Virus record (IMG/VR): IMGVR_UViG_3300049719_000158
Location: 1 to 64,000 of that record
Reading direction: 5' to 3' (one strand)
Source of the DNA: a virus
DNA length: 64,000 nt
A program made the position numbers and the translations under genes. The notes beneath the pieces were generated by a model. The model had not been told where the DNA came from, did no database searches, and saw only the letters and a list, made by a program, of their open reading frames with translations. Position 1 is the first letter of the stretch, and every line of letters starts with the position of its first letter. This document shows, piece by piece, positions 31,164-59,975 of this stretch.

Positions 31164-31535
31164 TTATTTTCCTATCGTAAGGTCACACGTTCCATCGTGT
31201 AAGTTTGACATGTGATACTGCGTTAAGCGTGTAACGCAAGTGTTTGTGTATTTGAAGATTTTGTCTCCGCTCGTCACGTACGCGCACTCAAATCGTGGAA
31301 CAATTTCAACGACTTCTAATGCAGACGCAATGTCAACGCGAAGCGTAACGCTCAGTTCACCCACGGTGTGTGAAATGTTGACCAGTAAACCCGACAGTTC
31401 TAATGTTTCGTCTTTGTCCTTAAGACGAACCATGACAAACGTCGACTGTTTTACTTTTTCTTCGATAGGATCAGGTTGATGACCTTCTGCCCAATCCATT
31501 TCAATTTGATCAATGAAATCTACGTCTTTAGACAT
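31164..31535 (-). CDS. Hypothetical protein
   Basis: 123 aa ORF overlapping the uxs stop. Confidence 0.6.
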
Positions 31536-32487
31536 TTCTCAACTCTTTTCTAAAATAAGAAATGGTTGAAATTAGCCCATCTTTGAGAGAAACTTTTGGT
31601 TCCCATCCTAATAACTCTTTTGCTTTCGTGATGTCAGGCTTGCGTTGGAGTGGGTCGTCTGAAGGCAACGTGCGGTACACAAGTTTACTCTTTGAAAGAG
31701 TGAGCTTAATTATCGTCTCAGCGAGTTGTTTCACCGTAATTTCACTTGGATTACCCAAGTTTATTGGACCTGTGATTGTGTCATCACTGTTCATCAACTT
31801 GACAAAACCCTCAATGAGATCGCTAACGTAGCAAAAGGACCTTGTCTGCGACCCGTCACCATACAACGTGATGTCTTCGTCTTTTAGTGCCTGACATATG
31901 AAGTTTGAGACTACACGCCCATCGGACGGGTTCATCGCAGGTCCAAAAGTGTTGAAAATTCGCGCAATCTTGATGCGAACGTTGTGTTGTCGGTGATAAT
32001 CAAAAAACAAAGTCTCCGCAACTCGCTTGCCCTCGTCGTAGCATGAACGTATGCCGATTGGATTTACGTTGCCATGGTACTCTTCACTCTGCGGATGATG
32101 AGCCGCGTCAGGGTCACCGTAGACCTCTGAAGTGGAAGCCTGAAACACCTTTGCGCCAGTCCGACGAGCAATGCCCAACACGTTGATCGCGCCTAGGACG
32201 CTCGTCTTTGTGGTGTGCACGGGATTGTGCTGGTAATGAGGGGGCGACGCAGGACAGGCGAGATTAAAAATTTGATCTACGTCTAATGTAATTGGTTCAC
32301 ACACGTCGTGTCGAATTACCTCAAAGCGCGCTGGATAATCGTGCATCAACTGCACGATGTTGTCCTTGCGACCGGTGAAGAAGCTGTCGAGGCAAATGAC
32401 TTCATCATGAGGGTGATGCCACAAAAGTCTTTTGCAGAGGTGACTGCCGATCATCCCAGCGCCACCTGAAATTAACGTTTTTGTCAT
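31528..32487 (-). CDS. uxs: UDP-glucuronate decarboxylase (UDP-xylose synthase)
   Basis: [66 protein letters not shown]. Confidence 0.93.
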
Positions 32488-32786
32488 TTAAACTTCCTTC
32501 GTGAACCACCATTCGCACCACTCTGGAACCGTAAATCCGAACTGAAGCGTTGTTTTTGGTGGTGCTAACAATTTCCACCCATCGCCTAAAGCATGTAAGG
32601 GCGTAGAATAACTTCGTATTGTTGGTATGTCAATTTGACTTGTTTTGACGTCTAATCCAAATTCTATCATCGCAGATGCAACAAATAATCCGGACTCTGA
32701 TGATTGGTTTATAACACTGTCACGAATGTGTGATGATTTCGTTACTAAAACAAGTATAATTTGATGTGTCATACTAAGATAGTATA

Positions 32787-33128
32787 CTACGCGTTTACGT
32801 TATACACAATGTCTCTGTAAAATTGATCACACGCCGCGGCGTAGCTCTTGTCGAGCTCAGTGATGACGTCAATTCCACGCGTGAAGACTTCAATCGTCAC
32901 TTCAAACGTCATTGCTTCGCTAACCTTTTCAATCACGATCTCTGCGTTGTGTTGAGACTGAAGTTCATAGTACAACACGTCTGCGACGAAGCGTACCCTT
33001 TGTTCGGGAGACAAAAACTTGTAAATCTTTCTGAGCACAACAATGTCACACCCACGATCTACCTGACGCCACCTGTCCTGAGCAACGATTGCGGGTTCAC
33101 GATCAATGGGATTGATTGGGTTGTTCAT
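32787..33128 (-). CDS. Pterin-4a-carbinolamine dehydratase-like protein
   Basis: W...LRKIYKF...FV...E..QHNAEI...T..ITELD..YA pattern. Confidence 0.6.
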   Translation of the reverse strand: MNNPINPIDREPAIVAQDRWRQVDRGCDIVVLRKIYKFLSPEQRVRFVADVLYYELQSQHNAEIVIEKVSEAMTFEVTIEVFTRGIDVITELDKSYAAACDQFYRDIVYNVNA

Positions 33129-33555
33129 TTTTGTGATCTTTTGTGCTTCGCACAGTGCAATTAATTATTGACGTTGCCACAATTAGCAACATACATGTGA
33201 AAAATGAGACGAGATCCATTTGCCAAAATTGCATTTTATCACTTTCCAAAAATCATTATTGATGCCGTAAAAATCAAAAATGCAATACAAAAATCCCAGA
33301 AGTTCATTCGTCACACCCACTCTTCTTTACATCAACCTTCACCGACATAATCACGTCGTCAACCCACGTGATTGTTACACCACCAAAAATAGTCATCGAC
33401 ATGAACAGCACGTTGCCGGAGAATATCTTGAGCAACATGCTTGCACGAGCAAAGACTTCAGGTGAGAGCTTGGATTTTAGAGAGGTTAACTGTTTAATTG
33501 CTTCTTGGTTTGTCATTGATAAGATTGTATAATACGGAGGGTGAAGAGTACACAA

Positions 33556-34720: not shown

Positions 34721-36025
34721 TTAATCTTCTTGTTCGTCTTCTACGTTAACGCGATCCAATGCCATCTCGCGTTTGATTGCTTTTCCGAGGTACTCGCGGA
34801 AACCGTCCAAAAGTTCGATCTCATTTGGATTATTTAATAAAAATTGAATATCTTCTGGGCTCAGTTCTCCCGATGACGACAAAATATCTATATATTCGCG
34901 GATTGCATATAACGTAATTAGACGCAAATCGTCAGGATCCATCGACGCGACGTAACTTGCTTTCGCCAGCGCACGATCTACGCTCGCTTTCGCGCCTGCA
35001 ACGCTAAATCCCAAGTCTTTTGCTATGTCTTTGAACGACGCGCCTTCTTTATTCGACTTAAATCTCTTCTCTTCATCGTCCTCGTCTTCATCATCTTCTT
35101 CGGTCGCTTCTTTTACTTCTCCCGTGCCAACAGTAGCTTCCGGTTTCTTCGATTGCAGACTTTCTTGCTTTTCTGCCTGCGTCTCTTGAGCTACTTCTTC
35201 CTTTTCGCCCGTCGTTTCTTCAGCCTCAGGTTCCTCTTCTTTTTTCTTTGGCCACATTGCATCGTGTGCGTCAAGGTTCTTCTTCCACGCCTCGACTGCG
35301 GGATCCTCTGACGTCTCGATTAGAACCTTGCGAATTTCATTGCGAATTGCTTCTTCTGTTTTCATGTTGCTTCCTGGCCACACGGGCTCGTTTGTAATTG
35401 TGACTTCTGCGGGCACGTCTTCTTTAATTTCAACCCACCAGTGTGAATTTTTTCTCGTCCCACCGCCGCCCACAAAAGGTTTGTTGACTTCGCCCTTGTT
35501 GACGACCTGAAAATTAATTCCAAGCGCAGTTAGTTCTTTTGCGATTTTATTTGCAAAATCATCGGCGCGCATTCCTTGCTTGTAAAAAAATCCCCGACGC
35601 AGGACGACGTTGCCTTCTTTGTTTTTGCTAACGTCATCAACGCCTGGCAAGTCTCCCTCTCTGACGAGCTTCACTATCCTTGACCCAAAGCTACCCTTGC
35701 CTTCAGTCAACTTTCGTGCTTCTTCAACCTTGTCATTCGTGCTCGTCGCCGTGTCTATCGCGTCCTTTATGTCGTTGTAAGCTTTGTTCACCTTTTCGTC
35801 AGGCACTTCGCCGATGTCGTTCGCCATCAGCACGAGGCTCTTCTTGAGCTCTTCGCCATTGCGAGGTTCAACGTCCTTGTTGAAGGGATCTGTTTCAATT
35901 GCAGACGGATCTGCATTTGGGTTGACGTTCACCGCTGTAGAGTGTGACACGCCATAGTCGTGGTTATCGAGAGCTTCCTTGACGAGCTCTGATAGCGCTT
36001 GTTTGCTGATGACAACGCTTTTCAT
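34721..36025 (-). CDS. Acidic multidomain protein with leader-like LxE motifs and a C-terminal HTH
   Basis: ISKQALSELVKE, internal IRNEIRKVLIE, ASFKDIAKDLGFSVAGAK; TATTTAT upstream. Confidence 0.7.
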   Translation of the reverse strand: MKSVVISKQALSELVKEALDNHDYGVSHSTAVNVNPNADPSAIETDPFNKDVEPRNGEELKKSLVLMANDIGEVPDEKVNKAYNDIKDAIDTATSTNDKVEEARKLTEGKGSFGSRIVKLVREGDLPGVDDVSKNKEGNVVLRRGFFYKQGMRADDFANKIAKELTALGINFQVVNKGEVNKPFVGGGGTRKNSHWWVEIKEDVPAEVTITNEPVWPGSNMKTEEAIRNEIRKVLIETSEDPAVEAWKKNLDAHDAMWPKKKEEEPEAEETTGEKEEVAQETQAEKQESLQSKKPEATVGTGEVKEATEEDDEDEDDEEKRFKSNKEGASFKDIAKDLGFSVAGAKASVDRALAKASYVASMDPDDLRLITLYAIREYIDILSSSGELSPEDIQFLLNNPNEIELLDGFREYLGKAIKREMALDRVNVEDEQED

Positions 36026-37694: not shown

Positions 37695-38198
37695 TCACCC
37701 AGCCGCTGACGTCAATTCTGGGCCGCCGCCGATGCCAGAATTGGGAGAAGCGTACTCACTGTCCTCGACGTCCTCTTGAGACTTGCCTACGACCAATCCA
37801 TGTTGCTCTCTCAGCGCGTCCTCGAACGAGGTCACGATTGACTTGTTGTATGACTTCGTCAAGAAATTCTTTGCTCTGTTGACTATCGTGTCATGAAACT
37901 CAAGCAAGTTCTCGTAATTCTCGATCATGTTTGCGATGCTGTTCGCAAAGTTTTCAACGTCAAACTCGTCGAGCGTCTCGTCCTGCTTTGATTGTGTAGG
38001 CATGTCGCCTTCAAGGAGCTGGCGACAATAACCAAACCAATCGTGCGTTTCGTTCTTCGCCTTGTGAGCCTCTTGTTCATATTCAGAAAAATAACGATCC
38101 AACTGATTATCTAACGACGCGCCAAGAACTCGCTTGTCTTTAATGACATTGCCCTCTTCATTGATCAATTGTCGAAGCTCTCGTAGTGTAATTTTCAT
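37695..38198 (-). CDS. Protein with MKITLRELRQLINEE leader
   Basis: Shared N-terminal motif. Confidence 0.75.
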   Translation of the reverse strand: MKITLRELRQLINEEGNVIKDKRVLGASLDNQLDRYFSEYEQEAHKAKNETHDWFGYCRQLLEGDMPTQSKQDETLDEFDVENFANSIANMIENYENLLEFHDTIVNRAKNFLTKSYNKSIVTSFEDALREQHGLVVGKSQEDVEDSEYASPNSGIGGGPELTSAAG

Positions 38199-39896: not shown

Positions 39897-40202
39897 TCAT
39901 TCAAGGACGTATTCATTCTCGAACGTTGTAGCATCAACGATAAATAATTTACCTTCTGACGTTCGAAGTACGACATCTTGAGGTGAAACACTGTCAACTG
40001 TGTATTTTAATCCGGATTTACGATGTTGGACCTTTAGCTCAGGTGCAACCAATATCGTGTCTTTGTCACCAACAACACCGGAGAACGTAATGTTTGCCTT
40101 TTCGCACAGCGTCTTGACGCGAGACGTCCATTCTTCTCGCATTACGTCGATGATGTCTGTTTCAGTGAGCTTACGCATGTTATCTACTAACAATCTTCTC
40201 AA
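39897..40202 (-). CDS. Hypothetical protein with MRKLTETDIIDVMREE leader
   Basis: ORF with a leader-like motif. Confidence 0.65.
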   Translation of the reverse strand: MRRLLVDNMRKLTETDIIDVMREEWTSRVKTLCEKANITFSGVVGDKDTILVAPELKVQHRKSGLKYTVDSVSPQDVVLRTSEGKLFIVDATTFENEYVLE

Positions 40203-40416
40203 CTTGTGAGATCATTTCAGGAATAAAAGACGATTGAGCGTATTTGAGCGTTGAAAGGATCTCAACGTAATCATTGGTTGTTTTCATTTTGTCTATCATT
40301 TGTGATAAACTTTCAAGATCATTAAAAATATCTTGTTTTCTGCGCCACCCAGATGAATATGCGTCAAGTTCTTCATTGATGATACGTCGTAATTGTGATG
40401 TCTTAATCGTCGACAT
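40180..40416 (-). CDS. Small protein with IKTSQLRRIINEE leader
   Basis: Shared motif; TAATTA upstream. Confidence 0.7.
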   Translation of the reverse strand: MSTIKTSQLRRIINEELDAYSSGWRRKQDIFNDLESLSQMIDKMKTTNDYVEILSTLKYAQSSFIPEMISQVEKIVSR

Positions 40417-40426
40417 GTTATATTAA

Positions 40427-40963
40427 TTATTCGCCTGTCCAAACTTTACCGTCAAACGTTCTAATTAGGCCTAAACTAATTTTCTGAATTTCTTCTAATG
40501 TCGGTGGAATTATGTGTGTTCTCACTTCAATTCCCGCTTCTCTCAGCATGTTCAATGCAACCATGAAAGTTTCACCCATACCGCCCGTAGGAGCATCTGT
40601 GCCGTCAGGAAACACGACAGTCTTTATTCCCGATTGTATGATCGCCCGTGCGCAGTCGGCACAGGGCGAGTGATTACAGTACAACGTGCATCCCTCAAGA
40701 CTTTCACCACGACGCGCCGCAGCGTATACTGCATTTCGCTCAGCGTGCTCAACCCAGAAATATTTTGTTGGGCGCTCTGAGCGTTCTTCAACGTCATCTG
40801 ACAAATTTCTTGGTATTCCGTTGTAGCCTGTCGCCCTGACGTTGCGCACGTCATCGACTATGACTGCGCCCACCTTCGTGGACGTGTCCTTTGACCATGA
40901 TGATATCAGTTTGGCGAGCTCAAGAAACCGATTGTCCCATTTGTTACTCACTTTGTCACCCAT
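40427..40963 (-). CDS. dCMP deaminase (ComEB family)
   Basis: SKD..TKVGA, GYNG, HAE.N, PCADC. Confidence 0.95.
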   Translation of the reverse strand: MGDKVSNKWDNRFLELAKLISSWSKDTSTKVGAVIVDDVRNVRATGYNGIPRNLSDDVEERSERPTKYFWVEHAERNAVYAAARRGESLEGCTLYCNHSPCADCARAIIQSGIKTVVFPDGTDAPTGGMGETFMVALNMLREAGIEVRTHIIPPTLEEIQKISLGLIRTFDGKVWTGE

Positions 40964-44234: not shown

Positions 44235-44268
44235 AGGTGATTTTCCTTTGTAATTACAATATCACACG

Positions 44269-45087
44269 TCACAAGTAGTTACACAAAACTTTCACTTCTT
44301 CATCAGTTAAGTCTTTCCATTCTTTGTCACGTAGCCTATTCAACAAACTGCCTTTGCATTGTCCGCAAGTCAACTTTCGAATGTCAGTGACAATGCGTTG
44401 TTTGAGCTCCTCAGGATTAACCCAATTTCCAACGTTTGTGCACGAAGTCGAAAGGTGTGTTTTAAGAGGTTTCATGAGTTTAACGTCTTTTGACAAAGAT
44501 ATACGAATAAGTTTCATATTGTGTTCATGAAAGTATTCATTTTGTTTTATGTCAATCAACATTTTGTGATGTATTTGACCATCACGTGGCGTACGATGTT
44601 TTGCAATTTCTTCTATTGGTCTATCAAGACCATGCCAATATGGGCCGTCATATTGAATGTATGTATCAATTGTATTCACGTAAAAATCAATTGCCCATAT
44701 TGTTGATTACTTTTTGTTTCGTTCACCAAAATCTTTGTCTAAGAAACGTGCACTTTCCATATATTTGTATGAACGTTGTTCAATGAGTGTTAATTCATCA
44801 CCATGAACAAATTTAAGTACACGATCAATTTGTTCATAAGTAAATGTTTTTTGTGTTTTAAAATTTGAACGATTACATCCTAATAGTAATCGAAGTGGTG
44901 TTGTTTTAAACGTACCGCGTTTGCTATCAACGCACGTGCAACGTCTCGCTATTGAAACATATGTTTCGTCAATAAGAGTAATTGTATTTCCGTGAAGAGA
45001 TTTAATGAACTCTTTTATGTCGTCAAGCGTATATTTCACAATCCCATAATTTCCATTGCTTTTTGCGTCGTAGCTTCGTATGAACAT
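44269..45087 (-). pseudogene. Vsr-like homing endonuclease, fragmented
   Basis: N-part resembles the N-terminus of ORF 52496-53794; C-part WAIDFY..IDTYIQYDG.YWHGLDR...PRD. Confidence 0.7.
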
Positions 45088-46307
45088 CGTTCTCTAATAA
45101 CACGTTGCAAATTGTTTAAATGTTGTTGTTTTGATACTTGAAACGTATTCAATAGTTTATCGAGTGTATCAATAAAGTTTGAAAAATCTGGATTATACAA
45201 GAATGGATAACCCGCTTCTTTCGCTATTGCTGCGTATTCGTTACAATTTGCCCATATGGGCATCATACCAAGCGTTATACACTCTCTTGATGCAGTTCCT
45301 CCATACGTATCAACATCGTACGCGCCTATTACAACGTGTGAATTTTTTGCAACAAATTTATATTCGTTTCTATTAAACGCATTGCCGCCAATACTAATAT
45401 AGCCATGTGCGCCACACTTTTCTTCAAGTTGTTTATTTGAAAATTTCTGATTAGGATTTCCTGCGATAACAACAAAATCTTGTCGATGTTTGTAAAGTTT
45501 CGGAAGAATTTCAAACATAAATTTCATACCTCGAGTAAAATCATTACTTCCGGTACTGATACGATTAGGAAAAAACAGAATTTTCTTTCCCTTCGTCTTT
45601 TGTTCAAACTCACACATATCGAAACGTACGTTGTCATAATTTATTTCGGACGTAATTTCTGCAATCGAATATCCATCGTCATAGGGTGAGCTCTTCTTCA
45701 TGATTTCGTCAACGACTTTATCCTGTAAAACTTCTCTTGCATCATCTTCAAACTGATCAAGCGCCGTTTGACACTGCCAGAAATTATAATCAGCTTTTTG
45801 CGCCGCCTCAAGTTGTCCCAACCAAATTGACGCTTCTTCAGGAAATTTTGGATTTGTTGGACAATCAATAAAATGTGCATGGACAACAAATTTTGGCGTA
45901 TAACCAGCGCGTAAAAAGAATAATGCCTTATAGTGCCTCAATAATAGTGGATCGTTAACATAAACGATATCATAGCGCATGTTTGTGTACGGCTTCATGC
46001 GTGTTAAGCTAAGTGCTTCGTCCATTTCGTCTATGTTGAAATCGTAACGCGTTGCAAGTGCGTTTGGAATGACACGATGTGCCTTGTAAAGGACCATCCC
46101 TCCACCTTGAAATAAGTCAGGATTTATTTGTTCCGGTTGTTCAACGAGTTGTTCACGAAGTGGCCCTGTGATGTCAATCAGGAGATTGGGAGACAATTTC
46201 AACATCTCTCGAATTCGTCCGACACACATCTGCCAGCCGCTGTCTTGTCCTAACCCTGCTTTACCATTAATAAAATTGCTTAATTGCGTTTGGAAAAGTA
46301 CTCGCAT
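45036..46307 (-). CDS. GT-B-like glycosyltransferase (candidate DNA glycosyltransferase)
   Basis: 423 aa, two Rossmann-like halves; ILFFPNRIS, EY..V...S.V, DTYGGTASRECI.LG..PI resembling the GT-B Ex7E region. Confidence 0.65.
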   Translation of the reverse strand: MRVLFQTQLSNFINGKAGLGQDSGWQMCVGRIREMLKLSPNLLIDITGPLREQLVEQPEQINPDLFQGGGMVLYKAHRVIPNALATRYDFNIDEMDEALSLTRMKPYTNMRYDIVYVNDPLLLRHYKALFFLRAGYTPKFVVHAHFIDCPTNPKFPEEASIWLGQLEAAQKADYNFWQCQTALDQFEDDAREVLQDKVVDEIMKKSSPYDDGYSIAEITSEINYDNVRFDMCEFEQKTKGKKILFFPNRISTGSNDFTRGMKFMFEILPKLYKHRQDFVVIAGNPNQKFSNKQLEEKCGAHGYISIGGNAFNRNEYKFVAKNSHVVIGAYDVDTYGGTASRECITLGMMPIWANCNEYAAIAKEAGYPFLYNPDFSNFIDTLDKLLNTFQVSKQQHLNNLQRVIRERCSYEATTQKAMEIMGL

Positions 46308-47177: not shown

Positions 47178-48221
47178 TTATTTCACCATATGTACAGCCG
47201 CTATTTTTTTGTGCATTACTTCAGGCCATTCAATAAATTCAAGCACCTCTTTTACTTGACGATCTAAATCTTCGTCATCAACATAAAGTATATGAACGTT
47301 ACCATGTGACCAGTTTTTAAAACAATGATAAAGTTCTGAAATATATGTTAACGCTTTTTCATTTATTGTTGGGTCTAAATCATCACATATTCCAACAAAT
47401 GATTTTCTGGTGCATATCAAAATTTTTGCACCAATTTTGGTGTAATCATAATCTAACTTACGTAACATCCTCAAATCTGTTTCACGCTTAAAATATTGTG
47501 CATAAACCCATTCACACATATATGCACGATCAACTAATACACTTGTACACAATTGATATAATACATCCACAAAACGTGGTTCTGCATATCGTATTTCATT
47601 AATAAATCTATCTTGAGATAACAAGAAATTTTCATGTTCGTTTGAAACTTTAAAATAATTTATTCCTGTTATACGTTCAATTTCTCTAAGAATTGTTGTT
47701 TTTCCACATCTATCGGGTCCACCGCATAAAAGAACAACTTGTTGAGGATTTCCTCGACGATTTGTTCGTTCTTGAGCATTTTTGTGTTTTATACGATCTT
47801 CTTCTGACCACTTACGACCCATTCCTGCTTTACTTAAATTTGAATGAGTTTCAGTGGAAACAATTCTGTGCCACGACGACATTTTTAATTTTGTTTCAAA
47901 CGTCATTTCGCACCCGCACATTCCTTCACCTCCACGTGTCATATTGTATCCTTTGTCAGGATAATCATATATGAACGTTTGGTGCTCAGAAATTAGACGA
48001 ATTTCTGCACTTTTTGCTTCTTCGCAAGAAGCAAATTCACCCAATATTTCATGTATCCATGCATCAATACCGTATTTTTGTATTGCTCTATGAAAAGCGT
48101 ATTTTGATCCTCGCTTTGCTGATTTAATATGTCCTCGCCAGCATTCACTAATAGATGAATTAGTCCATCCAATGTACGCTTTTCCGTTAGTTGAATTTGT
48201 ATGTTTATATACAAGAGGCAT
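47178..48221 (-). CDS. GIY-YIG/NUMOD3 endonuclease fused in frame to a dNMP kinase
   Basis: VYKHTN..NGKAYIGWT, GYNMTRGGEG, then GGPDRCGKTT and LVDRAY..EWVY. Confidence 0.8.
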   Translation of the reverse strand: MPLVYKHTNSTNGKAYIGWTNSSISECWRGHIKSAKRGSKYAFHRAIQKYGIDAWIHEILGEFASCEEAKSAEIRLISEHQTFIYDYPDKGYNMTRGGEGMCGCEMTFETKLKMSSWHRIVSTETHSNLSKAGMGRKWSEEDRIKHKNAQERTNRRGNPQQVVLLCGGPDRCGKTTILREIERITGINYFKVSNEHENFLLSQDRFINEIRYAEPRFVDVLYQLCTSVLVDRAYMCEWVYAQYFKRETDLRMLRKLDYDYTKIGAKILICTRKSFVGICDDLDPTINEKALTYISELYHCFKNWSHGNVHILYVDDEDLDRQVKEVLEFIEWPEVMHKKIAAVHMVK

Positions 48222-48529
48222 GTGACAATATTCTATTCTAACCAACGACAATTGTACACACTACAATAACTTAAACTCTGGATGTTCTTCGAGAAGAACA
48301 CGCATTGCAACGTCGTAGTCGTTCGGTTCAATGAACGAAAATCTCAATGCCCACCCAAGTGCTTCATGAATGATATCAAATTCCTTTTAAGACATTTAAT
48401 TGTCTTCCTTTTCGTCAGGAACGTTCAAAAACACGTACATCGACAATAATGCCAAGACTATTGCGACGAACAACCACGCGTCTTGCGTCATGTGTGGCCA
48501 TTGAAAGTGAACGAGCCACGTTGGGGGCT

Positions 48530-50606: not shown

Positions 50607-52508
50607 TCATACTGTCACTTCCTTGCACTTGTGTATTCTCGTTGAAACTCCGAAGTCATTCCTCTCACACTCAGCTACGTATAACGCAAATGGCACCAAG
50701 TCTTGGTTTGCACCCCAAACGTTGATCTTCACGTTTTTGGTGCCAATTCCGAGCGTGTCGGCACACACGTAGCTCTTGCCTGCCTTTGTCTTCTTCAGGA
50801 GAGACCTTACACAAACAAAGTAGTACAAGTCCTTCGCGCCTTCTTGACACATGTTGATTGGCTTTATTCCCTTGGCGTCAAGGCGCTCAAACACTGCCTT
50901 GTCTATCAAGGACACCGTATCGATGGCGCCTGTGATTTCAAGCATGAAAGAAGCCAACTCCTTCTTCGACCACTCGTCGCACTGGCCCACAGTTCGAGCC
51001 AGCTCGTACATTGTGCGCATGCCGATGTGTGGGTCGTTCTTCTTGCAGTGGCGTATCTTGCCGTCCATGAGAACTTCGTGCATTCCCTTGTAGGACTTGA
51101 AAAGCTTGTCCTCGCCCACGCAGTCAAGGCTCTCGAAGGCTCGAAGCTTCACGAGGGCCTCAAACCCACGCTTGTTGAACTTGCTGAAGCGCCACGTGCC
51201 GTCAGCGTTGTAGAGCATGTGCTCGAGGCTGTCAAAGGGACGAAGCGACATGAGCTCGGCTACTGCTGCGGCGCCGACGCCTTTGCAGGAGAGGAACGAG
51301 GGAACGAAAGTCTTCTTCTCCTTGATACAGACCCACTTTGATGAGGAGTAGTTGACGTCGAGGGACATGACCTTGTAACCGAGCTCTTTTACTTGGGAGA
51401 CGGCCAACGCCTTGTCTTCGTCCGAGGAGACTGACTCGAGGTACGTGGCGAGCCATTCGTCGGGATATTTAGTGAAAAGCCAGCTGCAATAAAAGCTATC
51501 GATTGCATATGCGGTGGCATGCGAACAATTTGAAACAGATATGTCATTTGCAAAAAATGTGTGATCTGGATGATCTACTGTAAGATCATATGTCATTTCA
51601 GGAGCACATTTTTTAATGCTAACGATTTCGTCAAGTAATTTGGTCGTTGTAACAACATGTTCACATTTACACGACATTATTTCTTTTAGTGATTTTAACC
51701 CAAACGGTGTCATTATTTTGTGATCAATGGTACAACGAAGCGTTTTGCCAGATTCTGTTCTTAGCTCGTATACTTCGTTCACACCTTGATCAAGTTGATT
51801 GAGCACCTTTACATAACCATTTTCAGACAAAACGTGCTCACCCGGGATGACGTCTTTAATTGATACTGTCCCACGTTCCTTTGTTTTCACAAACGAAGTG
51901 GCGGACAGACAATTAAACCCATATCCCGCAAAAAATAGAATATTTGCATATGCTTTTCGAGCTATTTCTTCAGGAACAGAATTCTTTATCGCACCGTTCA
52001 TGAAATCGTCTTCGAGCGCAAGAGCTTTTTTCTTTGCCTCTTCGCCACCTGACGTCGAACGCTTCATGATTGCTCGGCGAACTTCGTCACACTTCTCCAT
52101 CGGAAATCCACCGACGTAATGTGCCAAATTCATCACATCTTCCTGAAAAATTAAGAGACCTCGAGTTTCTTTTAGAACTTCGTTGATTAACGGGTGACCC
52201 CAGTCGTAGGGTTCATGTTCATGTTTGACCCAGAGGTCATGCACCCTCGCTGAAAGGGGTCCCGGGCGATAAATTGACGTTAATGCAGCAATATCCATTA
52301 TTGATTTTGGTTTTGCTTTTTTAAATAAATTTTGAGCTCCTTTCGACGTGAGCTGAAATATGATTGGGAAGTGACCGTCCTCATAAACATGCTTGTAAAC
52401 TTCTTGATCGTTCAAATCAATGGTATCAAGTCCCATGTTTTGTTCGTACCATGAACGAACATCAGAAAACGAAGGTTCAACTTTTGTGATTGACGTTATT
52501 TTTGACAT
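50607..52508 (-). CDS. dnaE: DNA polymerase III alpha, C-terminal part, containing a mini-intein
   Basis: IFQL, SIYRPGP, LIFQE, FAGYGFN, SHATAY, KGVG HhH, C-terminal OB-like region. Confidence 0.93.
   Translation of the reverse strand: MSKITSITKVEPSFSDVRSWYEQNMGLDTIDLNDQEVYKHVYEDGHFPIIFQLTSKGAQNLFKKAKPKSIMDIAALTSIYRPGPLSARVHDLWVKHEHEPYDWGHPLINEVLKETRGLLIFQEDVMNLAHYVGGFPMEKCDEVRRAIMKRSTSGGEEAKKKALALEDDFMNGAIKNSVPEEIARKAYANILFFAGYGFNCLSATSFVKTKERGTVSIKDVIPGEHVLSENGYVKVLNQLDQGVNEVYELRTESGKTLRCTIDHKIMTPFGLKSLKEIMSCKCEHVVTTTKLLDEIVSIKKCAPEMTYDLTVDHPDHTFFANDISVSNCSHATAYAIDSFYCSWLFTKYPDEWLATYLESVSSDEDKALAVSQVKELGYKVMSLDVNYSSSKWVCIKEKKTFVPSFLSCKGVGAAAVAELMSLRPFDSLEHMLYNADGTWRFSKFNKRGFEALVKLRAFESLDCVGEDKLFKSYKGMHEVLMDGKIRHCKKNDPHIGMRTMYELARTVGQCDEWSKKELASFMLEITGAIDTVSLIDKAVFERLDAKGIKPINMCQEGAKDLYYFVCVRSLLKKTKAGKSYVCADTLGIGTKNVKINVWGANQDLVPFALYVAECERNDFGVSTRIHKCKEVTV
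51528..51911 (-). mobile_element. Mini-intein (128 aa) at GFN|CSH of DnaE
   Basis: CLSATS start, CTIDH block B, TYDLTV..HTFFANDISVSN|C end. Confidence 0.9.
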
Positions 52509-53794
52509 ATTATATTCAAGAACTGTTCAAAAGAAGTTTCGTTATCAATAATACGAATAAAATTTAAATCTTGTAGTTTAAACCATTCGTTTTGTTGCAA
52601 GTCACGTTGCATTGTGTCAAATATAACCTTATCTCTTGGCTTTTTAAACTCTTTAATTTCATCAATTGATCTGTTCAACCCATGCCAATACGTTCCATCA
52701 AATTGGACGTATGTATCAATTGATTTTATATAAAAATCTATTGCCCAACCGTTAACATTTTGTTGACGTACTACGTCGTCAATACTGAATAGTGAAACTA
52801 AAAATTCGTAAAATCTATCTTCAGATTTAGACTTACCATATGAACCATTTTTCTTCATTGTTTGATGAATTTTTTCTTGAATTTCAGGACGCTTCAACTC
52901 TTCACTAATTTTTGCACGAACTTCAGGTAATTTTGAAAGGTTATCAACGCCAAATTTCTCAATCCAAGAATTCACACAGTCTTTTCTATCACCTGCCCAA
53001 TTGTGTTCATAACCGTGTCTAACAAGATTTATTTGACGTATCTTTTCTTGAATTACTGGTGAAGCGTACACATTTTCAACGCCATAACGTTCAATGTTAG
53101 TTTCCTTGATGTGTTCTCGCACTATCGTTGAGCCAATTGCATACTCACAACCATAACGCTCGAGATTTGTCTTGGTTCTACTAATTTTTGCTTTTTCTTT
53201 TATACTTTCGACCTTATTTGGACTTGAAACGCCATAATTTTTCATGTACGTTTCAACTGCTTTTGCTTTCACTACGGGTGACGACGAAGCGTGTTCGTAC
53301 CCATACTTCTCCATGCAAAATTCTTTTTTCTGTAACAATGCACGTTGGTGATGAACGCGTCCACAGTAAACTACACCCGTAGACGTATGAGAAAACTTTC
53401 CAAAATCTTTATCAATCCAATCGCAACCAGTGCCGGGATTGACATATGTTTCTTCAACGAGCTTTATTAGATCACCATACTTTTCAAGTAACAGCTGTTT
53501 TATTTTTAAAATGTCTCTTTCACGTTTTTCTTTTGCTTTTCGCTCTTTGTGATAAAAACCCTCAAAAAAATGATCAAGTCGTTGTGTAAATCTTCCAAAT
53601 TCAATGTCAATGAAATCACATTTTGATTTTAGACCTGAAAATGTGTTGTCAACTATCGTAACCGTATTTCCAAACTTTGCAAAAATTGCTTCTTTTACAA
53701 GTTTTAACTTTTCTTCTTTTGACTTACGTTTCATCACCAAACCTAAAAAACACACCTTCCAAAGAACCACTTTCACCAAGTGAAAACGAACCAC
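52496..53794 (-). CDS. Vsr-like homing endonuclease with ETNxERYG repeats (intact), lying between the dnaE halves
   Basis: Repeated KxTNxERYGxE; SKSE...IDFY...QFDGTYWH...RD..QN; likely start ATG at 53734. Confidence 0.85.
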   Translation of the reverse strand: MVRFHLVKVVLWKVCFLGLVMKRKSKEEKLKLVKEAIFAKFGNTVTIVDNTFSGLKSKCDFIDIEFGRFTQRLDHFFEGFYHKERKAKEKRERDILKIKQLLLEKYGDLIKLVEETYVNPGTGCDWIDKDFGKFSHTSTGVVYCGRVHHQRALLQKKEFCMEKYGYEHASSSPVVKAKAVETYMKNYGVSSPNKVESIKEKAKISRTKTNLERYGCEYAIGSTIVREHIKETNIERYGVENVYASPVIQEKIRQINLVRHGYEHNWAGDRKDCVNSWIEKFGVDNLSKLPEVRAKISEELKRPEIQEKIHQTMKKNGSYGKSKSEDRFYEFLVSLFSIDDVVRQQNVNGWAIDFYIKSIDTYVQFDGTYWHGLNRSIDEIKEFKKPRDKVIFDTMQRDLQQNEWFKLQDLNFIRIIDNETSFEQFLNIICQK

Positions 53795-53896
53795 TTGATG
53801 TCATCTTGAATAAGTCTGCTGAAACTTTATCATTATTTGTAGTTGTGTCAATAGGACATATTGTGAAGTTTAAATTTTTATCATCTTTTGTCATAA

Positions 53897-56650
53897 TCAC
53901 ATTTTTTCTATTGGTATCACTACGTCGTCACTAATTTTTAATTCCCGTACAAAGACGTATTGACCATTTGTTAACTTAACTTTGTCATTCTTATTTAATT
54001 TATAATTTATTCCATCAATACACACATTTACAAGTTCGTTTTCTAAAATTAAACTAATGCTATTTTCTATTAGACGCAAAGTGGATAGCCCGAGGATATC
54101 CATTTTTATCCACTGTGCAATTTTTTCTAACTCCTTAACATTCATACCTTCGGTCCATGGACTTTGCGGTTCTCCTCCTGACATTATGAGTGGCATCTGC
54201 TTCGCAATGTCGTCCGCAATCAACACGCCACCTGCGTGTCTTGACAAGCTCTTGTTTTGCTTGAACAAGATCTTCATCGAAGCTCCAATTTCTGGATGTG
54301 CCTCGATGAAATCCCTGAACGACTTGCTATATTCCATTGCAGCATCATAGGTTAACACAAACAAATTCTTGTCATCACCTTCTTTTAAGGTTGCCTTTCT
54401 TACTTCGTGTTCAACGGATGCAGTGGCCCTGTTCGCCTCTTCAAAGGGAATGCCATAGAACTTGCTCAAGTCTTTGATCAGCGATTTAACTTTGAGCAAG
54501 TTATAATTACTGATAGGAATTACATTCGTGTTTCCAAACTCTTTGCGCAATACATCTAAAACCTTGTCGCGGTCGCCGATATCGGTGTCAATATCCGCCA
54601 TGCCTTGGCGATATTTACTCAGGAATCTGGAAAACGGTAACTTCCATCTAATTGGATCAAGTTCGGTGATGTACAAAACGTAATTAACCAAACTTCCCCC
54701 GCCTGATCCTCTCGCAGGTCCTACAAGGGTGACTTCACGAGCGAGTTCTATCACTTTTTGGTATGTGATGAAGTACTCGGCCATGTTCAGAAACTCAATT
54801 ACTTCAAGTTCCTCCTTGATCCTCTCTACGTACTCCCGCTTTCCCTTTAGCCCGCGCTTCTTTAGCCCTTCGATGCATAAATACGACAGGTGTTCTATCG
54901 GCGTCCTATCCTTTGGCACAAGCTTCTTCGGAAGCTTTATCGTCCTGTCGGGCTGCACGTCACCTATCTCTTCAAATGCTATATCGTGGCCTCGTTCTAC
55001 AGCATCGCAGACGAGATCATCAATGCTATCGTCGTATAAATCAGAGCGCTGCTTTGCTTTTTTATACTCCTCCCAGATTTGTAAATGATTCTTAGGATAA
55101 AGCTCGCACTTTAATTCCTCTCTCGACTTCGGCAAGAGATCAGGAGAGTACATGTCAAAGCTGACGTACGCGAGCTTCTTGTAGATCTCCCGTTCACGCC
55201 AGACGTCAGGGTTGTAGTAGTGCGCATCGCAGGTGACCAGGAGTTTATTAGTCAACCCATTTCTCTTGGCAAACTCGATCAAAGACAAGTTGATGATGTC
55301 CTGCGCGGCGAGCTTGTTGAACTGTAGCTCAAGGTACGTGTCTCCCTTACCGAACATGTCAACGAGCATCTCGTATGCATTGCCAACGGCATTGACGCAG
55401 TTTTCTTTGGTCTGCTTGTTACGAAGCAAGTTGACATCGAGCTCGTCGAACTTGTACTGTTCAAGGAGCTTGAAGATGTTGTAGCCCGGGAGACCTGAGA
55501 TACAATTGTGTACCAAGATGTCATCAGCAAAGAAGTTGTGGGTGTCAACGACTTCAATGTCATAGACGTCTGAATTGCCACAAGGATTTACCGTTTCAAT
55601 TTCAATGAACTCAACTGCGTCGTTGTCTTTGTATGCCTTTACACCTTGATGATGAAACCACTCAACGTATTGAGCACAATGTCGAGCGTGATTATGAGGA
55701 ACGCGACAAGTGCAGTAATTCTTGTATGTTTCAAGTCGATAGAGAATTTTGTCATCATGCCAAAGTTTTCCTGCCTCGACCCATCCACGTTTGGTGAACA
55801 ACCTGTGATCTGCAGTGAGTTTTATTTTTGCTCCGTTCATCAAGCACACTTCGACGATGGGCGTGTTGTAACGCGTCTTGTCTCCCCATGTCACCCGTCT
55901 GTGAACAATTTCATGCTTGTCTTCGTCCCAAGACATGACGTCTATTCGTTCGTTGTTCTTGTAAATTTTGACGACTTCTTCGATCGTGATCTTACCACGA
56001 TCAGTCCAAATCATCGTGTCAGGGTGCAGGCACGCCGTGCTCGCCAACACGTTGCCACGCGTCAAAGTCTCCTTGACCATCTTCACGTCGATGCGGGGAA
56101 ACCTATACAAACCCTCGAGAAAGCTTCTCGATGTCAGGTGAAACAACTCTTGCAGGCCCTGCGAGTTCTTTGGCAACAGAACAAGGTGGTGACGTCGGTT
56201 GACCGGGTTGAAGTGCTTTGTAGACTTGCTTTCGTCCTCGTTCTCAATGACAATTGCTGAAGACGTGTCAATGTCGACGATGTCATCGGAGCTGGAACGA
56301 GTGATGTTGAGCTGAGTCTCGACGGGAGTGCGGGATTTCTTTTTTAATCCTGCCTTTTCATCGTCGTGTTGAAGCTTGTCGAGCTTCCATTGTTCTAAGT
56401 CGGGGTGGAAATAAGCCTCGATGCCAGGGAGGTAGCGGAATTCTTTGCCTGACTTGTGCCAGCCTTCGACAAGAAGCTGGGAGCGGGCGTAACCCGACAT
56501 GTTCCCGTGATCCGTAAGAGCATGTCCACTTATTCCGTTCTCAATGCAAAAGGAAAAAATATCATCAGGATACCCAAGCGCGTCATTGCACGAAAAATTA
56601 CTATGGTTGTGAAGCGAAATATACTTTTGAGGAGTTTTTTCTGACATCAT
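53897..56650 (-). CDS. dnaE: DNA polymerase III alpha, N-terminal part (PHP + palm), containing a mini-intein
   Basis: LHNHS, LTDHG, GIEAY, TCDAHY, GPARGSGGGSLV, DIDTD, RHAGG, KMDILGL. Confidence 0.95.
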   Translation of the reverse strand: MMSEKTPQKYISLHNHSNFSCNDALGYPDDIFSFCIENGISGHALTDHGNMSGYARSQLLVEGWHKSGKEFRYLPGIEAYFHPDLEQWKLDKLQHDDEKAGLKKKSRTPVETQLNITRSSSDDIVDIDTSSAIVIENEDESKSTKHFNPVNRRHHLVLLPKNSQGLQELFHLTSRSFLEGLYRFPRIDVKMVKETLTRGNVLASTACLHPDTMIWTDRGKITIEEVVKIYKNNERIDVMSWDEDKHEIVHRRVTWGDKTRYNTPIVEVCLMNGAKIKLTADHRLFTKRGWVEAGKLWHDDKILYRLETYKNYCTCRVPHNHARHCAQYVEWFHHQGVKAYKDNDAVEFIEIETVNPCGNSDVYDIEVVDTHNFFADDILVHNCISGLPGYNIFKLLEQYKFDELDVNLLRNKQTKENCVNAVGNAYEMLVDMFGKGDTYLELQFNKLAAQDIINLSLIEFAKRNGLTNKLLVTCDAHYYNPDVWREREIYKKLAYVSFDMYSPDLLPKSREELKCELYPKNHLQIWEEYKKAKQRSDLYDDSIDDLVCDAVERGHDIAFEEIGDVQPDRTIKLPKKLVPKDRTPIEHLSYLCIEGLKKRGLKGKREYVERIKEELEVIEFLNMAEYFITYQKVIELAREVTLVGPARGSGGGSLVNYVLYITELDPIRWKLPFSRFLSKYRQGMADIDTDIGDRDKVLDVLRKEFGNTNVIPISNYNLLKVKSLIKDLSKFYGIPFEEANRATASVEHEVRKATLKEGDDKNLFVLTYDAAMEYSKSFRDFIEAHPEIGASMKILFKQNKSLSRHAGGVLIADDIAKQMPLIMSGGEPQSPWTEGMNVKELEKIAQWIKMDILGLSTLRLIENSISLILENELVNVCIDGINYKLNKNDKVKLTNGQYVFVRELKISDDVVIPIEKM
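55505..56032 (-). mobile_element. Mini-intein (176 aa) at TA|CISG of the PHP domain
   Basis: CLHPDT start, LTADH block B, VYDIEV..THNFFA..ILVHN|C end. Confidence 0.92.
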
Positions 56651-57416: not shown

Positions 57417-57554
57417 GAAGCAACGTACTTAATCACAAATCCTTCGAGCCATGAAACACACACGATGTCATGCGACCCAACACGGAGACAAAAGTTCTTT
57501 TCTCCCTCAACGAACTTGCGTCCAGTCAACATTCGTGCGGTGTCTAATGGCGTT

Positions 57555-58112
57555 TCAATCATGATTGCACACGTACTCGTACAGTTCGTTCATGCCATTT
57601 TCATCAGGCGTTATTATAAGTTCTTGTCGCATGCATATTCTGTTATAAAATAAGTCTTTGTCAATTTCGAGCGCTTGACTTTCACTTTCGTACCTGTCTT
57701 CGCTCACGTACTTGTGCACACGTCGCAGTATTGCGTTGACGTGAACGTGTCCTTCGTCCTGAGCCTGCTTGTAAAACGCATTGATCATCATCTCAACTGA
57801 ATTCGCAACTTCAACGCTGCAGTACTTTCTTGCGTATGCTAAGTTCAACAGCACCGGTGAGTCCGTGATCACGTAGTCGACTTTGCCATACAACATGCTC
57901 TCTCGACGAATTCCCTCGCCCAAGAAATACAATTGATCAAACTTTCCAACGGTTTTGCCGTCATAAAGCCAGTCTTTGACACACTCACGAACAAGCTCAG
58001 CGCTTTTGCCGTTTTTCTTGAAGACGTAGTAAAGGTACGCTGCACACGTAGACTTGCCGATTGATGGGCCACCGCACAGGTTCACGATCGTAGTCATTTC
58101 ATCGCCTCCCAC
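57555..58112 (-). CDS. P-loop NTPase/kinase (AAA_28/NadR-like)
   Basis: GGPSIGKST, ITDSP, R.ES..QA.EID. Confidence 0.8.
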   Translation of the reverse strand: MGGDEMTTIVNLCGGPSIGKSTCAAYLYYVFKKNGKSAELVRECVKDWLYDGKTVGKFDQLYFLGEGIRRESMLYGKVDYVITDSPVLLNLAYARKYCSVEVANSVEMMINAFYKQAQDEGHVHVNAILRRVHKYVSEDRYESESQALEIDKDLFYNRICMRQELIITPDENGMNELYEYVCNHD

Positions 58113-59086
58113 ATGCTTCTCACGGCGTCTTCAAGAGTTCGCTTTGCTTTCCACCCAAGAAAAGTATATGCACTGTGAGGGTTTGCGTATACTGTTGCAG
58201 GATCACCTGGTTTTCGTGGCCCGACTTCAAATGTTATTGTCTTGTTAGTAACTCGTTGAACGATGTCAATCGCCTCAAGTATGCTACAACCTTGCCCTGT
58301 GCCGAGATTATATACGACGTTAGCAAGTCCTTGACATCGTGGCATATAATTCATTGCTTCAACGTGAGCATCAACGATGTCTTCGACGTGAACGTAATCT
58401 CTTATACATGTTCCATCTTTCGTGTCATAGTCGATGCCATTAATCACAAATTTTTCTTTTGCTCCCGTTGCGACGTCAAGCAAAGCCGTAAACAGTCGTC
58501 GTTCGTTTGGATCTGCCGCGCCAAGAAATCCATTCTTCCCAACGCCCACTACGTTGAAGTATCTGAACATCGTTGCAGAAAATCGTGGATTAGACTTTAC
58601 AAAGTCATTGATCACCTGTTCACACATTAGCTTCGACGTACCGTACGGGTTTTCAGGGTGCTGAGGCGTGTGTTCATCAACTGGCACAATTTGTGGCTGC
58701 CCATACGTCGCGCAGGTGGAGCTGAAAATCAGATTGTAACAACCTGCCGCTTGCATTGCACGCAACAACGTCATCGTTCCACCAACGTTGTTGTCGTAAT
58801 AGTTCAATGGAAAATCGACGCTCTCTTTCACAAGAGCCAACGCAGCAAAGTGCATCACGCAGTCGACGTTGTTTTGCTCTAAAATTCTGTACAACCACAC
58901 GTCGTTCGAATCACGATCAAGTCGTAAATCGTATTTCTCAAACTTTGCTCGTGGATCGACCGCATGAATGTCACCACGAGACAAGTTGTCGATCGCAACG
59001 ACGTTGTGTCCCAAGTCACACAATCGCTTGGCTGCATGACTTCCGATGTAACCTGCACACCCTGTGACAGCGATGTTTTTCTTCAT
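58094..59086 (-). CDS. galE: UDP-sugar 4-epimerase (GalE or UDP-xylose/arabinose epimerase type)
   Basis: GCAGYIGSH, MHFAA..VKESV..PL.YY.NN, SSTCATYG, YGTSK, RYFN, DGTCIRDYVHV. Confidence 0.88.
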   Translation of the reverse strand: MKKNIAVTGCAGYIGSHAAKRLCDLGHNVVAIDNLSRGDIHAVDPRAKFEKYDLRLDRDSNDVWLYRILEQNNVDCVMHFAALALVKESVDFPLNYYDNNVGGTMTLLRAMQAAGCYNLIFSSTCATYGQPQIVPVDEHTPQHPENPYGTSKLMCEQVINDFVKSNPRFSATMFRYFNVVGVGKNGFLGAADPNERRLFTALLDVATGAKEKFVINGIDYDTKDGTCIRDYVHVEDIVDAHVEAMNYMPRCQGLANVVYNLGTGQGCSILEAIDIVQRVTNKTITFEVGPRKPGDPATVYANPHSAYTFLGWKAKRTLEDAVRSMWEAMK

Positions 59087-59510
59087 TTCAATTCACCACA
59101 AAGTTATTGAGCGCCACAAACTCTTTCTCTGACACGACGACTGCGCGCTGGGCACCAATTTTATCAATGAATGGCGTGTCTAACAAAACGACGTACATGA
59201 AAATGTTACTTGTCACATTTCGTGCACCCACGACTTCACCCTTGCCAAAATCATGTGTCACAACTCGAGAACCAATATTCACCATGTAATCATAGTAACA
59301 TAAATCGTCAACAATTACACAATTCTCGACCATTCTTCGTTGTAACACATTGTCGCCGGATCGAACATTCCCACAAAGTACGGGTAATAGTCATCAGTGT
59401 TTTTGGTACCCACGCTAATACTTCAAGATCAAGGTAGATATCTAACGAACATTTGTATATATTCATTTACTTTACGTGTAAAACAAAATCTGGAAAGTTC
59501 ATTTTAACAC

Positions 59511-59975
59511 TTAATAATCCGAATTTATACGCGCACAGTTAATGAACCCTTTTTTCATGTACGCATCATAAAACTCTTCAGGTGTAAAGCCTGCAAAAAT
59601 TACACTTTCCAAAAGATAGTGCTGCGCATCGCACATTTCTTCAAGAAGATGTGCACGATCTAATTTTCCAACAACTGTTTTTCTATGCGCTTTTGCGTCT
59701 GAAAGTGCAGCTATTGCTTCGAAAATTTCTTCTGCACACTCGTGTAAATATTGCTTGACAACGCGCTGACCAGCTTTTGTTTCCATGTCAACAGGAAACT
59801 TTACCTGTCCACGCTTCTCTTGTAGTAGCAACATAAAATCTTTTTGTTGCTGCCACATTTCGTTTAACATATTATCATACTGTGATTCAAGACAACACAC
59901 ACTTGAACGCTTTGTAGTAATAACAACATGTTTACGTTTAAAACACGACTTTATTTTCTGAAATAAAGTCATCAC
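59511..59975 (-). CDS. All-alpha dCTPase/dUTPase (T4 gp56/dUTPase_2-like)
   Basis: EEIFEA...LEEMCD..HY...Y.KK..IN.AR...DY. Confidence 0.75.
   Translation of the reverse strand: MMTLFQKIKSCFKRKHVVITTKRSSVCCLESQYDNMLNEMWQQQKDFMLLLQEKRGQVKFPVDMETKAGQRVVKQYLHECAEEIFEAIAALSDAKAHRKTVVGKLDRAHLLEEMCDAQHYLLESVIFAGFTPEEFYDAYMKKGFINCARINSDY

Follow-up and report, generated by a model that had tools for sequence, protein, structure and literature searches.

Which modified base, if any, would be made by an uncultured jumbo phage that encodes a cytidylate hydroxymethylase close to a glycosyltransferase (GT) and, farther along the same genome, enzymes that tailor UDP-sugars? The question is raised by the first 64 kb (here called the window) of the 89,731-base IMG/VR record IMGVR_UViG_3300049719_000158, to which CheckV assigns a completeness of 27%, so that the whole genome should measure about 330 kb. 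The first-pass annotation of the window had proposed that the phage replaces cytosine with 5-hydroxymethylcytosine (5hmC) and decorates it with xylose or L-arabinose. All eight genes on which the proposal was built turned out to be intact minus-strand open reading frames (ORFs) where it had placed them (Table 1). Judging from an active-site signature, a fold, and conserved gene linkage, we consider it probable that the phage replaces cytosine with 5hmC and then glycosylates it; that a pentose occurs anywhere in the adduct is possible, at a likelihood that we put clearly below even.

We began with the thymidylate synthase (TS) homologue. Its 256-residue product matched T4 dCMP hydroxymethylase (PDB 1b49) with an E value of 2.9e-74, as against 1e-12 to 1e-14 for ordinary thymidylate synthases. 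In tblastn searches, T-even gp42 proteins were 48 to 53% identical to it, and 772 records matched at E <= 1e-30, T4-like throughout among those listed; its identity to RB69 gp48 was 27%. The catalytic Cys is kept (FVCTN, aligned with FMCTN of T4 and equivalent to C146 of Escherichia coli ThyA), and Asp residues stand at positions -3, +23, and +31 from it, as in T4 gp42. The Asp at +31 (RND, aligned with RND of T4) replaces Asn177 of ThyA, the position of dCMP specificity, while that at -3 (QDFVC versus SDFMC in T4) replaces Leu143, which is associated with water access and a nonmethyl product. The gp42-like synthase with a dCMP-specifying Asp named in the first-pass annotation was thereby confirmed.

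The same three positions bear on whether the base could instead be a glycosylated 5-hydroxycytosine (5hoC), as in RB69, DLP3, and Rhizobium phage RL38J1. According to the sections of PMC13326640 (NAR 2026) on which we draw here and below, the DNA of RB69 and DLP3 carries arabosylated 5hoC, and the TS homologues are flavin-dependent 5hodCMP synthases. The rules given there, in E. coli ThyA numbering, are that D169N is diagnostic of a 5hodCMP synthase, N177D marks dCMP specificity, and L143D/E marks a nonmethyl product. Positions -3, +23, and +31 from the Cys of the window enzyme correspond to L143, D169, and N177. RB69 gp48, aligned by us in the same manner, has Glu, Asn, and Asp at these positions; since these are the residues expected, our mapping reproduces the published rule, and the window enzyme, which reads RSSD (Asp) at +23 where RB69 gp48 reads RSQN (Asn), would be of the 5hmC type. 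Asp was found at both +23 and +31 in the TS homologues of all 23 relatives described below, irrespective of their TS type. The window enzyme and the clade formed by these relatives are therefore predicted from sequence to make 5hmC and not 5hoC. Glycosylated 5hoC would account for the kinase/GT/TS triad, which is the same in the published 5hoC clusters and includes a homologous kinase, but it demands the D169N substitution diagnostic of the RB69 type, which is absent here and from all 23 relatives. It also fits poorly with the higher identity of the enzyme to T-even gp42 than to RB69 gp48, and neither SIS (arabinose-5-P isomerase) nor NTP_transferase genes are present on the 89.7-kb record. 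We rejected 5hoC chemistry on the basis of position 169 and regard it as extremely improbable for this phage.

We then asked in what company the hydroxymethylase gene travels. When IMG/VR was scanned with an alignment built on the GT of the window, 26 related loci were retrieved (46 to 53% identity), whereas a single-sequence scan had found none; whole-record searches covered 23 of the 26. The recurrent gene order, determined by tblastn of the window proteins, is [UXS] - DnaE_N - DnaE_C - kinase - GT-B - SDR - TS homologue - dCMP deaminase, UXS being UDP-glucuronate decarboxylase (UDP-xylose synthase), and DnaE lies immediately upstream of the kinase-GT block. The kinase gene is upstream of the GT gene in 25 of the 26 loci (the remaining locus begins at the GT), the SDR epimerase gene is no more than about 4 kb downstream of the GT in all 26, and the TS homologue is downstream of it in 25, the last locus ending 0.6 kb past the GT. 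The dCMP deaminase gene comes after the TS homologue in most of them.

The slot of the TS homologue is filled in all 23 relatives with whole-record searches, although by two different enzymes. Thirteen have the gp42 type (48 to 59% identity), while the other 10 have a second type that is only 33 to 39% identical, is encoded by ORFs of 285 to 347 residues, and resembles MilA (CMP 5-hydroxymethylase 5jnh, E = 3e-47). The kinase-GT-SDR block is retained in those 10 as well. No other observation argues as strongly for an action of the block on hydroxymethylated cytosine as its retention through this nonorthologous exchange of the hydroxymethylase. The exchange also bears on a more modest explanation, that the DNA contains bare 5hmC or no modification at all and that the GT-B protein, UXS, and the 4-epimerase GalE glycosylate proteins or small molecules and happen to sit in an early-gene region. 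Most GT4 enzymes do act on lipids, sugars, or small molecules, but in 25 of 26 loci the GT gene is located between those of the kinase and of a cytidylate hydroxymethylase, a location maintained through the exchange of the latter, and this makes the explanation very improbable in our view. In four relatives (G020, G016, G014, and G022) the gp42-type match is broken by one to three stop codons, which may reflect an intron, an endonuclease insertion, or decay.

The kinase of the block is present in the window as an in-frame fusion, in which a GIY-YIG homing endonuclease (phrog_314, E = 1.6e-30; TIGR01453) precedes the kinase domain. The second deoxynucleoside monophosphate (dNMP) kinase recognized earlier at this position is thus real as regards the C-terminal 185 or so residues, the N-terminal part being endonuclease. 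Relatives have a free-standing kinase of about 175 residues, and the kinase ORF carries an N-terminal extension in two related loci (L012 and L013) too. An alignment of 13 family members of about 175 residues displayed the motifs GPDxxGKT and DR(G/A)YPCEWVY. Its profile matched deoxyguanosine kinase (2jas, 2.3e-4) and YorR of SPbeta (2axp, 4.4e-3) in the PDB, and 12 of the 13 members matched phrog_761, "thymidylate kinase." When the AlphaFold2 model of the kinase (pLDDT 87) was submitted to Foldseek, YorR (3kb2) came first, and deoxyadenosine kinase and thymidylate kinases were also among the best matches. The T4 gp1 structures 1dek and 1del were absent both from the 58 profile matches (E <= 1) and from the Foldseek matches listed. 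5-Hydroxymethyluracil DNA kinases act in thymidine hypermodification, and a DNA-level kinase was also considered for this P-loop protein; it was set aside as the main hypothesis, since both sequence and fold indicate deoxynucleoside kinases, Tmk, and YorR, as well as RB69 gp45. With the latter, hhalign of the family alignment gave 95.4% (E = 1.7e-8, 139 columns). In Table 1 of PMC13326640, RB69 gp45, DLP3 gp78 (best match YorR 3kb2), and RL38J1 gp214 are designated nucleotide kinases and adjoin the first GT (MshA-like, 3c4q/3c4v and 6kih) and the TS homologue. Given the homology of the window kinase to RB69 gp45 and the YorR 3kb2 fold that it has in common with DLP3 gp78, the block would correspond to the published kinase/GT1/TS triad.

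The 423-residue ORF of the block had no match in Pfam (E <= 0.01), PHROG, or NCBIfam, and the Pfam GT4 and GT1 profiles were no exception. Homologues numbered 379 at E <= 0.001; the 120 listed were 48 to 89% identical, had no precomputed Pfam domain, and in many cases were encoded on contigs of 300 to 370 kb. The nature of the protein emerged from its AlphaFold2 model (pLDDT 91.5, pTM 0.89, from a 33-sequence alignment). Foldseek matched the model with MshA (3c48, E = 1.7e-13), and VIA-align superimposed 354 of the 423 residues on BshA (6n1x; Z 30.2, root mean square deviation 3.3), followed by MshA 3c4q (Z 28.1), sucrose-phosphate synthase 6kih (Z 28.1), and PimA (Z 27.4). Its neighbors in the protein Atlas were GT4/GT1 clusters. 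On the strength of the model, we take the protein to be a GT4-like retaining GT-B enzyme from a divergent family known only by its fold, and the GT-B transferase reported earlier near the synthase is borne out. The top PDB matches, MshA 3c4q and sucrose-phosphate synthase 6kih, and the fold class are common to this protein and to the first GTs described in PMC13326640.

Several observations weigh against a cytosine-glycosylating role of the block. The 423-residue protein had no tblastn match at E <= 1e-3 among 50,697 isolate phage records, those of T-even alpha- and beta-glucosyltransferases included, and hhalign of its family with RB69 gp47 and gp46 (0.4 and 0.2%, respectively) detected no sequence similarity. 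Gene neighborhood is the sole guide to its presumed acceptor. In the DNA of the window, no ATG, GTG, or TTG codon stands in frame just before the P-loop of the kinase, so that the kinase would be made only as a fusion with the endonuclease. No gene for the exclusion or degradation of cytosine-containing DNA was identified, and the gene proposed to supply a dCTPase can be given that function only weakly, from sequence. That product, which the first-pass annotation called a gp56-like dCTPase, matched phrog_12184 (E = 1.6e-10) and, below the cutoff, Pfam dUTPase_2 (19.1 bits); 32 MazG/dUTPase matches in Gordonia phages were obtained by tblastn but were limited to the last 30 to 39% of the protein. 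It had no sequence match in the PDB, nor did tblastn match it with T-even gp56. What is left of the earlier claim is a weak resemblance to MazG/dUTPase-type enzymes, in a gene that is kept in 19 of the 23 relatives.

Two further points of this kind come from the published triads, since the GT syntenic with the TS gene was inactive on 5hoC DNA in vitro and the authors leave open whether the first sugar is placed on the nucleotide or on DNA (PMC13326640). They bring up a different order of events, in which the GT-B enzyme glycosylates 5hm-dCMP, the gp45-like kinase is suited to the bulky glycosyl-nucleotide, and DnaE polymerizes the product. Such an order would agree with the retention of the kinase-GT-hydroxymethylase triad both here and in three unrelated systems, the phages of which also have a separate gp1-type dNMP kinase (PMC13326640). 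It would, however, require a polymerase that accepts a glycosylated dNTP, and the DNA sugar transferases characterized to date, as far as the sources used here cover them (T4 alpha- and beta-glucosyltransferase, DLP3 gp76/77), all act on DNA. We therefore regard first glycosylation at the mononucleotide level as improbable.

Which sugar would be transferred was addressed through the donor-sugar genes. The UDP-glucuronate decarboxylase of the first-pass annotation proved to be a clear UXS: it aligned with human UXS1 (4gll) over residues 3 to 317 at E = 3.9e-112, the next, non-UXS family following at 7e-35. The stretch [14 protein letters not shown] and GSQTR, which we take to be catalytic motifs, are identical in the alignment with human UXS1. 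Orthologues with 44 to 56% identity occur in 17 of the 23 relatives, and in all 17 the distance to the GT is 5 to 20 kb (worked out by hand from the coordinates; the genomes are about 340 kb long, and this is their replication/nucleotide module). The protein at the 4-epimerase locus, for its part, is indeed a 4-epimerase, scoring above the TIGR01179 cutoff, but it is a canonical GalE whose best PDB matches are UDP-glucose 4-epimerases (8wxk, E = 8.6e-75). The UXE-type function suggested for it was not supported, and we have no evidence that it acts as a UDP-xylose 4-epimerase.

It is at this point that a hexose has to be weighed against a pentose. The GT-B enzyme could make hexosyl-5hmC, the hexose being either galactose provided through GalE or glucose taken from UDP-glucose of the host, and UXS could serve another glycan, e.g., of a virion protein or the host envelope, via the two GT31-like ORFs or GTs encoded elsewhere in the genome. 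We consider this unlikely but a serious contender. GalE is as expected for it, and so is the position of UXS, which adjoins ThyX and is about 4 kb from the GT31-like ORFs, compared with 12.5 kb from the GT-B gene, to which it is therefore not adjacent. The GT module occurs without UXS in relative G015 (78% complete), and UXS-like genes of 46 to 48% identity are found in other phages, e.g., those of Aphanizomenon and Pseudomonas, in which the searches made gave no signal of an hmC pathway. On the other hand, the constant 5 to 20 kb between UXS and GT in all the relatives with UXS would be left unexplained, and the epimerase that is always beside the GT hints at a donor other than plain host UDP-glucose.

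That epimerase does not settle the matter in favor of a pentose, either. In the relatives it is TviC/WbgU/WbpP-like, a type that the window lacks and for which it has GalE instead, and this counts against specifying a pentose. A GalE orthologue at E <= 1e-30 was absent from all 23 relatives, so the type is not conserved in the clade. The search for UDP-glucose dehydrogenase that the first-pass annotation had proposed yielded no member of the family on the 89.7-kb record, i.e., on 27% of the genome. A gene of the NDP-sugar dehydrogenase family is present in 7 of the 23 relatives and in all three that are at least 90% complete. In the complete relative G007, the best named models for the dehydrogenases are UDP-glucose 6-dehydrogenases, with only the subfamily cutoff passed. 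There, the genes belong to a separate cluster, about 145 kb off, that also encodes PseB/PseC-like enzymes and a further GT, and this implies that the sugar nucleotides of the phage have other destinations too; such additional sugar clusters in the relatives are likewise in line with a hexose on the DNA. This second sugar cluster of G007 (369 kb; locus L030, G007:C1:319000-338000) comprises a GT1/GT4 transferase, a PseB-like 4,6-dehydratase, a PseC-like aminotransferase, and two NDP-sugar dehydrogenases, and genes for an NMNAT-NUDIX protein and a NAMPT-like nicotinamide phosphoribosyltransferase come directly after it.

Thus, of the pentosylated hmC proposed originally, the formation of 5hmC and its glycosylation by a GT-B enzyme are well supported, given the T4 signature and linkage in 25 to 26 of 26 loci, while xylose or L-arabinose as the sugar is no more than possible, in view of the distance of UXS, the canonical GalE, and the other epimerase and sugar clusters of the relatives. 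In its most specific form, the preferred reading, glycosylated 5hmC, would have the virion DNA of the clade carry an undescribed base, 5hmC O-linked to xylose or L-arabinopyranose. The pentose would be produced by a phage UDP-glucose dehydrogenase, UXS, and a 4-epimerase and attached by a new family of GT4-like DNA or nucleotide glycosyltransferases with a dedicated gp45-like kinase, and in this phage the GT31-like ORFs would extend it to an oligosaccharide. This complete version is tentative, and we hold it to be somewhat doubtful.

For glycosylated 5hmC, the genes suggest the following sequence of steps. The MazG-like NTPase, if its weak match is a guide to function, and the dCMP deaminase would shape the dCMP and dUMP pools, with ThyX supplying dTMP. 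The deaminase and the separate ThyX, both named in the first-pass annotation, have firm Pfam matches, although ThyX lies outside the span that had been marked as the pathway. The gp42-type enzyme, going by its signature, would convert dCMP to 5hm-dCMP, the gp45-like kinase domain would phosphorylate the modified nucleotide, and the phage DnaE would incorporate the product. The GT4-like GT-B enzyme, to judge from its fold and conserved linkage, would then move a sugar from a UDP-sugar onto the hydroxymethyl group; from the GT4-like fold class we predict a retaining reaction and hence an alpha linkage. As for the donor, UXS would make UDP-xylose from UDP-glucuronate, and GalE would 4-epimerize a UDP-sugar. 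Finally, the GT31-like ORFs, which have no match in the 23 relatives and are thus lineage specific, may extend the DNA-bound sugar or act elsewhere.

T4 produces glucosyl-5hmC by means of gp42, gp1, gp56, cd, and alpha- and beta-glucosyltransferase, with host UDP-glucose as the donor. Features of T4 that recur in the window are the gp42-type signature, a thymidylate synthase distinct from the hydroxymethylase, a deaminase for dCMP, a GT-B fold transferase encoded near the hydroxymethylase, and, as a candidate, an NTP pyrophosphatase. It differs from T4 in that the GT is GT4-like and has no isolate-phage match, the kinase is of the gp45/YorR type (the gp1 type was not seen), the thymidylate synthase is ThyX and not ThyA, the replicase is DnaE, and the phage has UXS and GalE of its own. 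A route to UDP-L-arabinose through UXS and a UDP-xylose 4-epimerase is known from Sinorhizobium meliloti (Uxs/Uxe) and from plants (MUR4 and bifunctional UDP-glucose 4-epimerases). UXS and a GalE-family 4-epimerase in one genome, together with the NDP-sugar dehydrogenase of complete relatives, resemble this route, but the epimerase of the clade is TviC/WbgU-like, and the product would go to DNA instead of polysaccharide.

The likeness to the 5hoC clusters of RB69, DLP3, and RL38J1, as set out in the parts of PMC13326640 used here, extends to a YorR/Tmk-like kinase, an MshA-like GT-B enzyme, a TS homologue specific for dCMP, an unusual UDP-sugar supplied by the phage, and extra GTs for chain extension. 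Unlike those clusters, which have Asn at position 169, the window keeps Asp169 (5hmC type), and its gene order is reversed relative to RB69. The published clusters convert ribulose-5-P to UDP-arabinofuranose with an isomerase, a kinase/uridylyltransferase, and an HAD phosphatase, none of which is on this record, where UXS and a 4-epimerase are found instead. The "arabinosyl-hmC" of RB69 is now held to be arabinosyl-5-hydroxycytosine, for which ribulose-5-P is the source and UXS is not used (PMC13326640), and this renders the route proposed here more distinct, yet removes the only precedent for arabinosyl-hmC. In Shewanella phage Thanatos, cytosine is reported to carry a pentose, and UDP-xylose is named as the product of a phage enzyme, a UDP-xylose pyrophosphorylase (PMC12838424). 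A pentose-type sugar on cytosine and a phage-made UDP-pentose are features of Thanatos that may recur here, with the difference that Thanatos has the UDP-sugar pyrophosphorylase TH1_063 in place of UXS and that its TS homologue is of the D169N (5hoC) type (PMC13326640). In a full-text literature search, no paper connected UXS or a UXS/epimerase route with the modification of phage DNA, nor was a description of this jumbo-phage cassette found.

Coating cytosines with sugar is the classic way in which phages counter restriction enzymes and CRISPR nucleases. To our knowledge, sugar-cytosine chemistry was, before 2026, known almost solely from T-even phages. The cassette would extend it to a large clade of uncultured DnaE phages of about 340 to 370 kb. 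It would pair a T4-type hydroxymethylase with a kinase/GT pair hitherto described only for 5hoC systems, and supply of the donor by UXS plus a 4-epimerase would be new for DNA modification, as far as the literature was searched. Parts are exchanged within the clade (gp42 versus MilA type, TviC-like versus GalE epimerase, GT31-like genes present or absent), and an arms race with modification-dependent defenses would be expected to leave such a pattern. The GT and the kinase are candidates for new DNA-glycosylating tools and could help decide between nucleotide- and DNA-level first glycosylation.

Table 1. Features of the 64-kb window, in order of position
Feature	Position	Strand	Evidence
Tandem pair of ORFs (301 and 352 aa) with weak resemblance to Fringe/GT31; may be transferases that extend the sugar chain	25571..27522	-	PF02434 E 7e-4, below cutoff, one ORF
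ThyX flavin-dependent thymidylate synthase	28869..29525	-	PF02511 E 1.6e-45
UDP-glucuronate decarboxylase (UDP-xylose synthase, UXS)	31528..32487	-	Human UXS1 4gll
dCMP deaminase	40427..40963	-	PF00383 E 3.9e-25
Predicted dCMP hydroxymethylase, T4 gp42 type, 256 aa	42084..42854	-	PDB 1b49 and active-site signature
GT-B fold, GT4-like glycosyltransferase, 423 aa; candidate hmC sugar transferase	45036..46307	-	Fold and linkage
GIY-YIG homing endonuclease (aa 11-168) fused in frame to Tmk/dNK-like kinase (last ~185 aa, 47178-47735)	47178..48251	-	Profiles and fold
DnaE polymerase in two ORFs with intein segments	50607..56650	-	Intervening DUF7487 endonuclease-like ORF
AAA_28 P-loop protein overlapping GalE stop	57555..58112	-	PF13521 26.7 bits; phrog_2107 E 1.4e-9
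UDP-glucose 4-epimerase GalE, canonical	58094..59086	-	TIGR01179 360 bits (cutoff 262.3)
Small all-alpha NTP pyrophosphohydrolase-like protein, MazG/dimeric dUTPase superfamily, 154 aa; candidate dCTPase	59511..59975	-	phrog_12184; Pfam dUTPase_2 below cutoff
Thymidylate kinase-like protein	60545..61171	-	phrog_761 E 3.7e-11; TIGR00041 40 bits, below cutoff

Nearly all long ORFs beyond 12 kb are carried by the minus strand, and the replication and nucleotide-metabolism module spans 28 to 66 kb of the record. It includes ThyX, UXS, dCMP deaminase, the TS homologue, the 423-residue ORF, the P-loop ORF, and the two-piece DnaE, further GalE, the MazG-like ORF, Tmk, and a class I/II-type ribonucleotide reductase, and then DnaB, a DNA methylase, RecA, and gp32. 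Nucleotide megablast of positions 40000 to 48500 gave no match among isolate phages. The small ORFs between the kinase, GT, and hydroxymethylase genes matched no family, apart from a helix-turn-helix in 46933-47178. The AAA_28 protein next to GalE was considered as a paralogue of the GT-linked kinase and rejected, as hhalign to the kinase alignment gave only 2%.

The N-terminal DnaE ORF (917 residues) contains a full intein splicing domain, and the C-terminal one (633 residues) contains an intein fragment. The DUF7487 ORF between the two pieces is at 52496-53794, and a second one is at 39278-39865. A 434-residue ORF (34721-36025, minus strand) is partly conserved near the dCMP deaminase gene in at least eight related loci, over short stretches with 25 to 54% identity; it gave no family lead in Pfam, PHROG, or NCBIfam and no fold lead. 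Beside UXS, a small ORF (32787-33128, minus strand) had a subthreshold match with pterin-4a-carbinolamine dehydratase (E = 2e-4).

An N6/N4 DNA methyltransferase gene (PF01555, E = 1.1e-38) adjoins DnaB at 67077-67946 of the contig (L001 4077-4946, minus strand), so that a second, methyl modification of the phage DNA may occur. Farther on, a NUMOD3 ORF (contig 77171-78064, L001 14171-15064, minus strand) had a faint match with the N-terminal domain of PvuRts1I-like hmC-dependent endonucleases (E = 0.005), too weak to interpret. The window also encodes a GroEL-type chaperonin (8600-10189, plus strand) and a protein with a C-terminal domain of Fe/Mn superoxide dismutase (38195-38905, minus strand).

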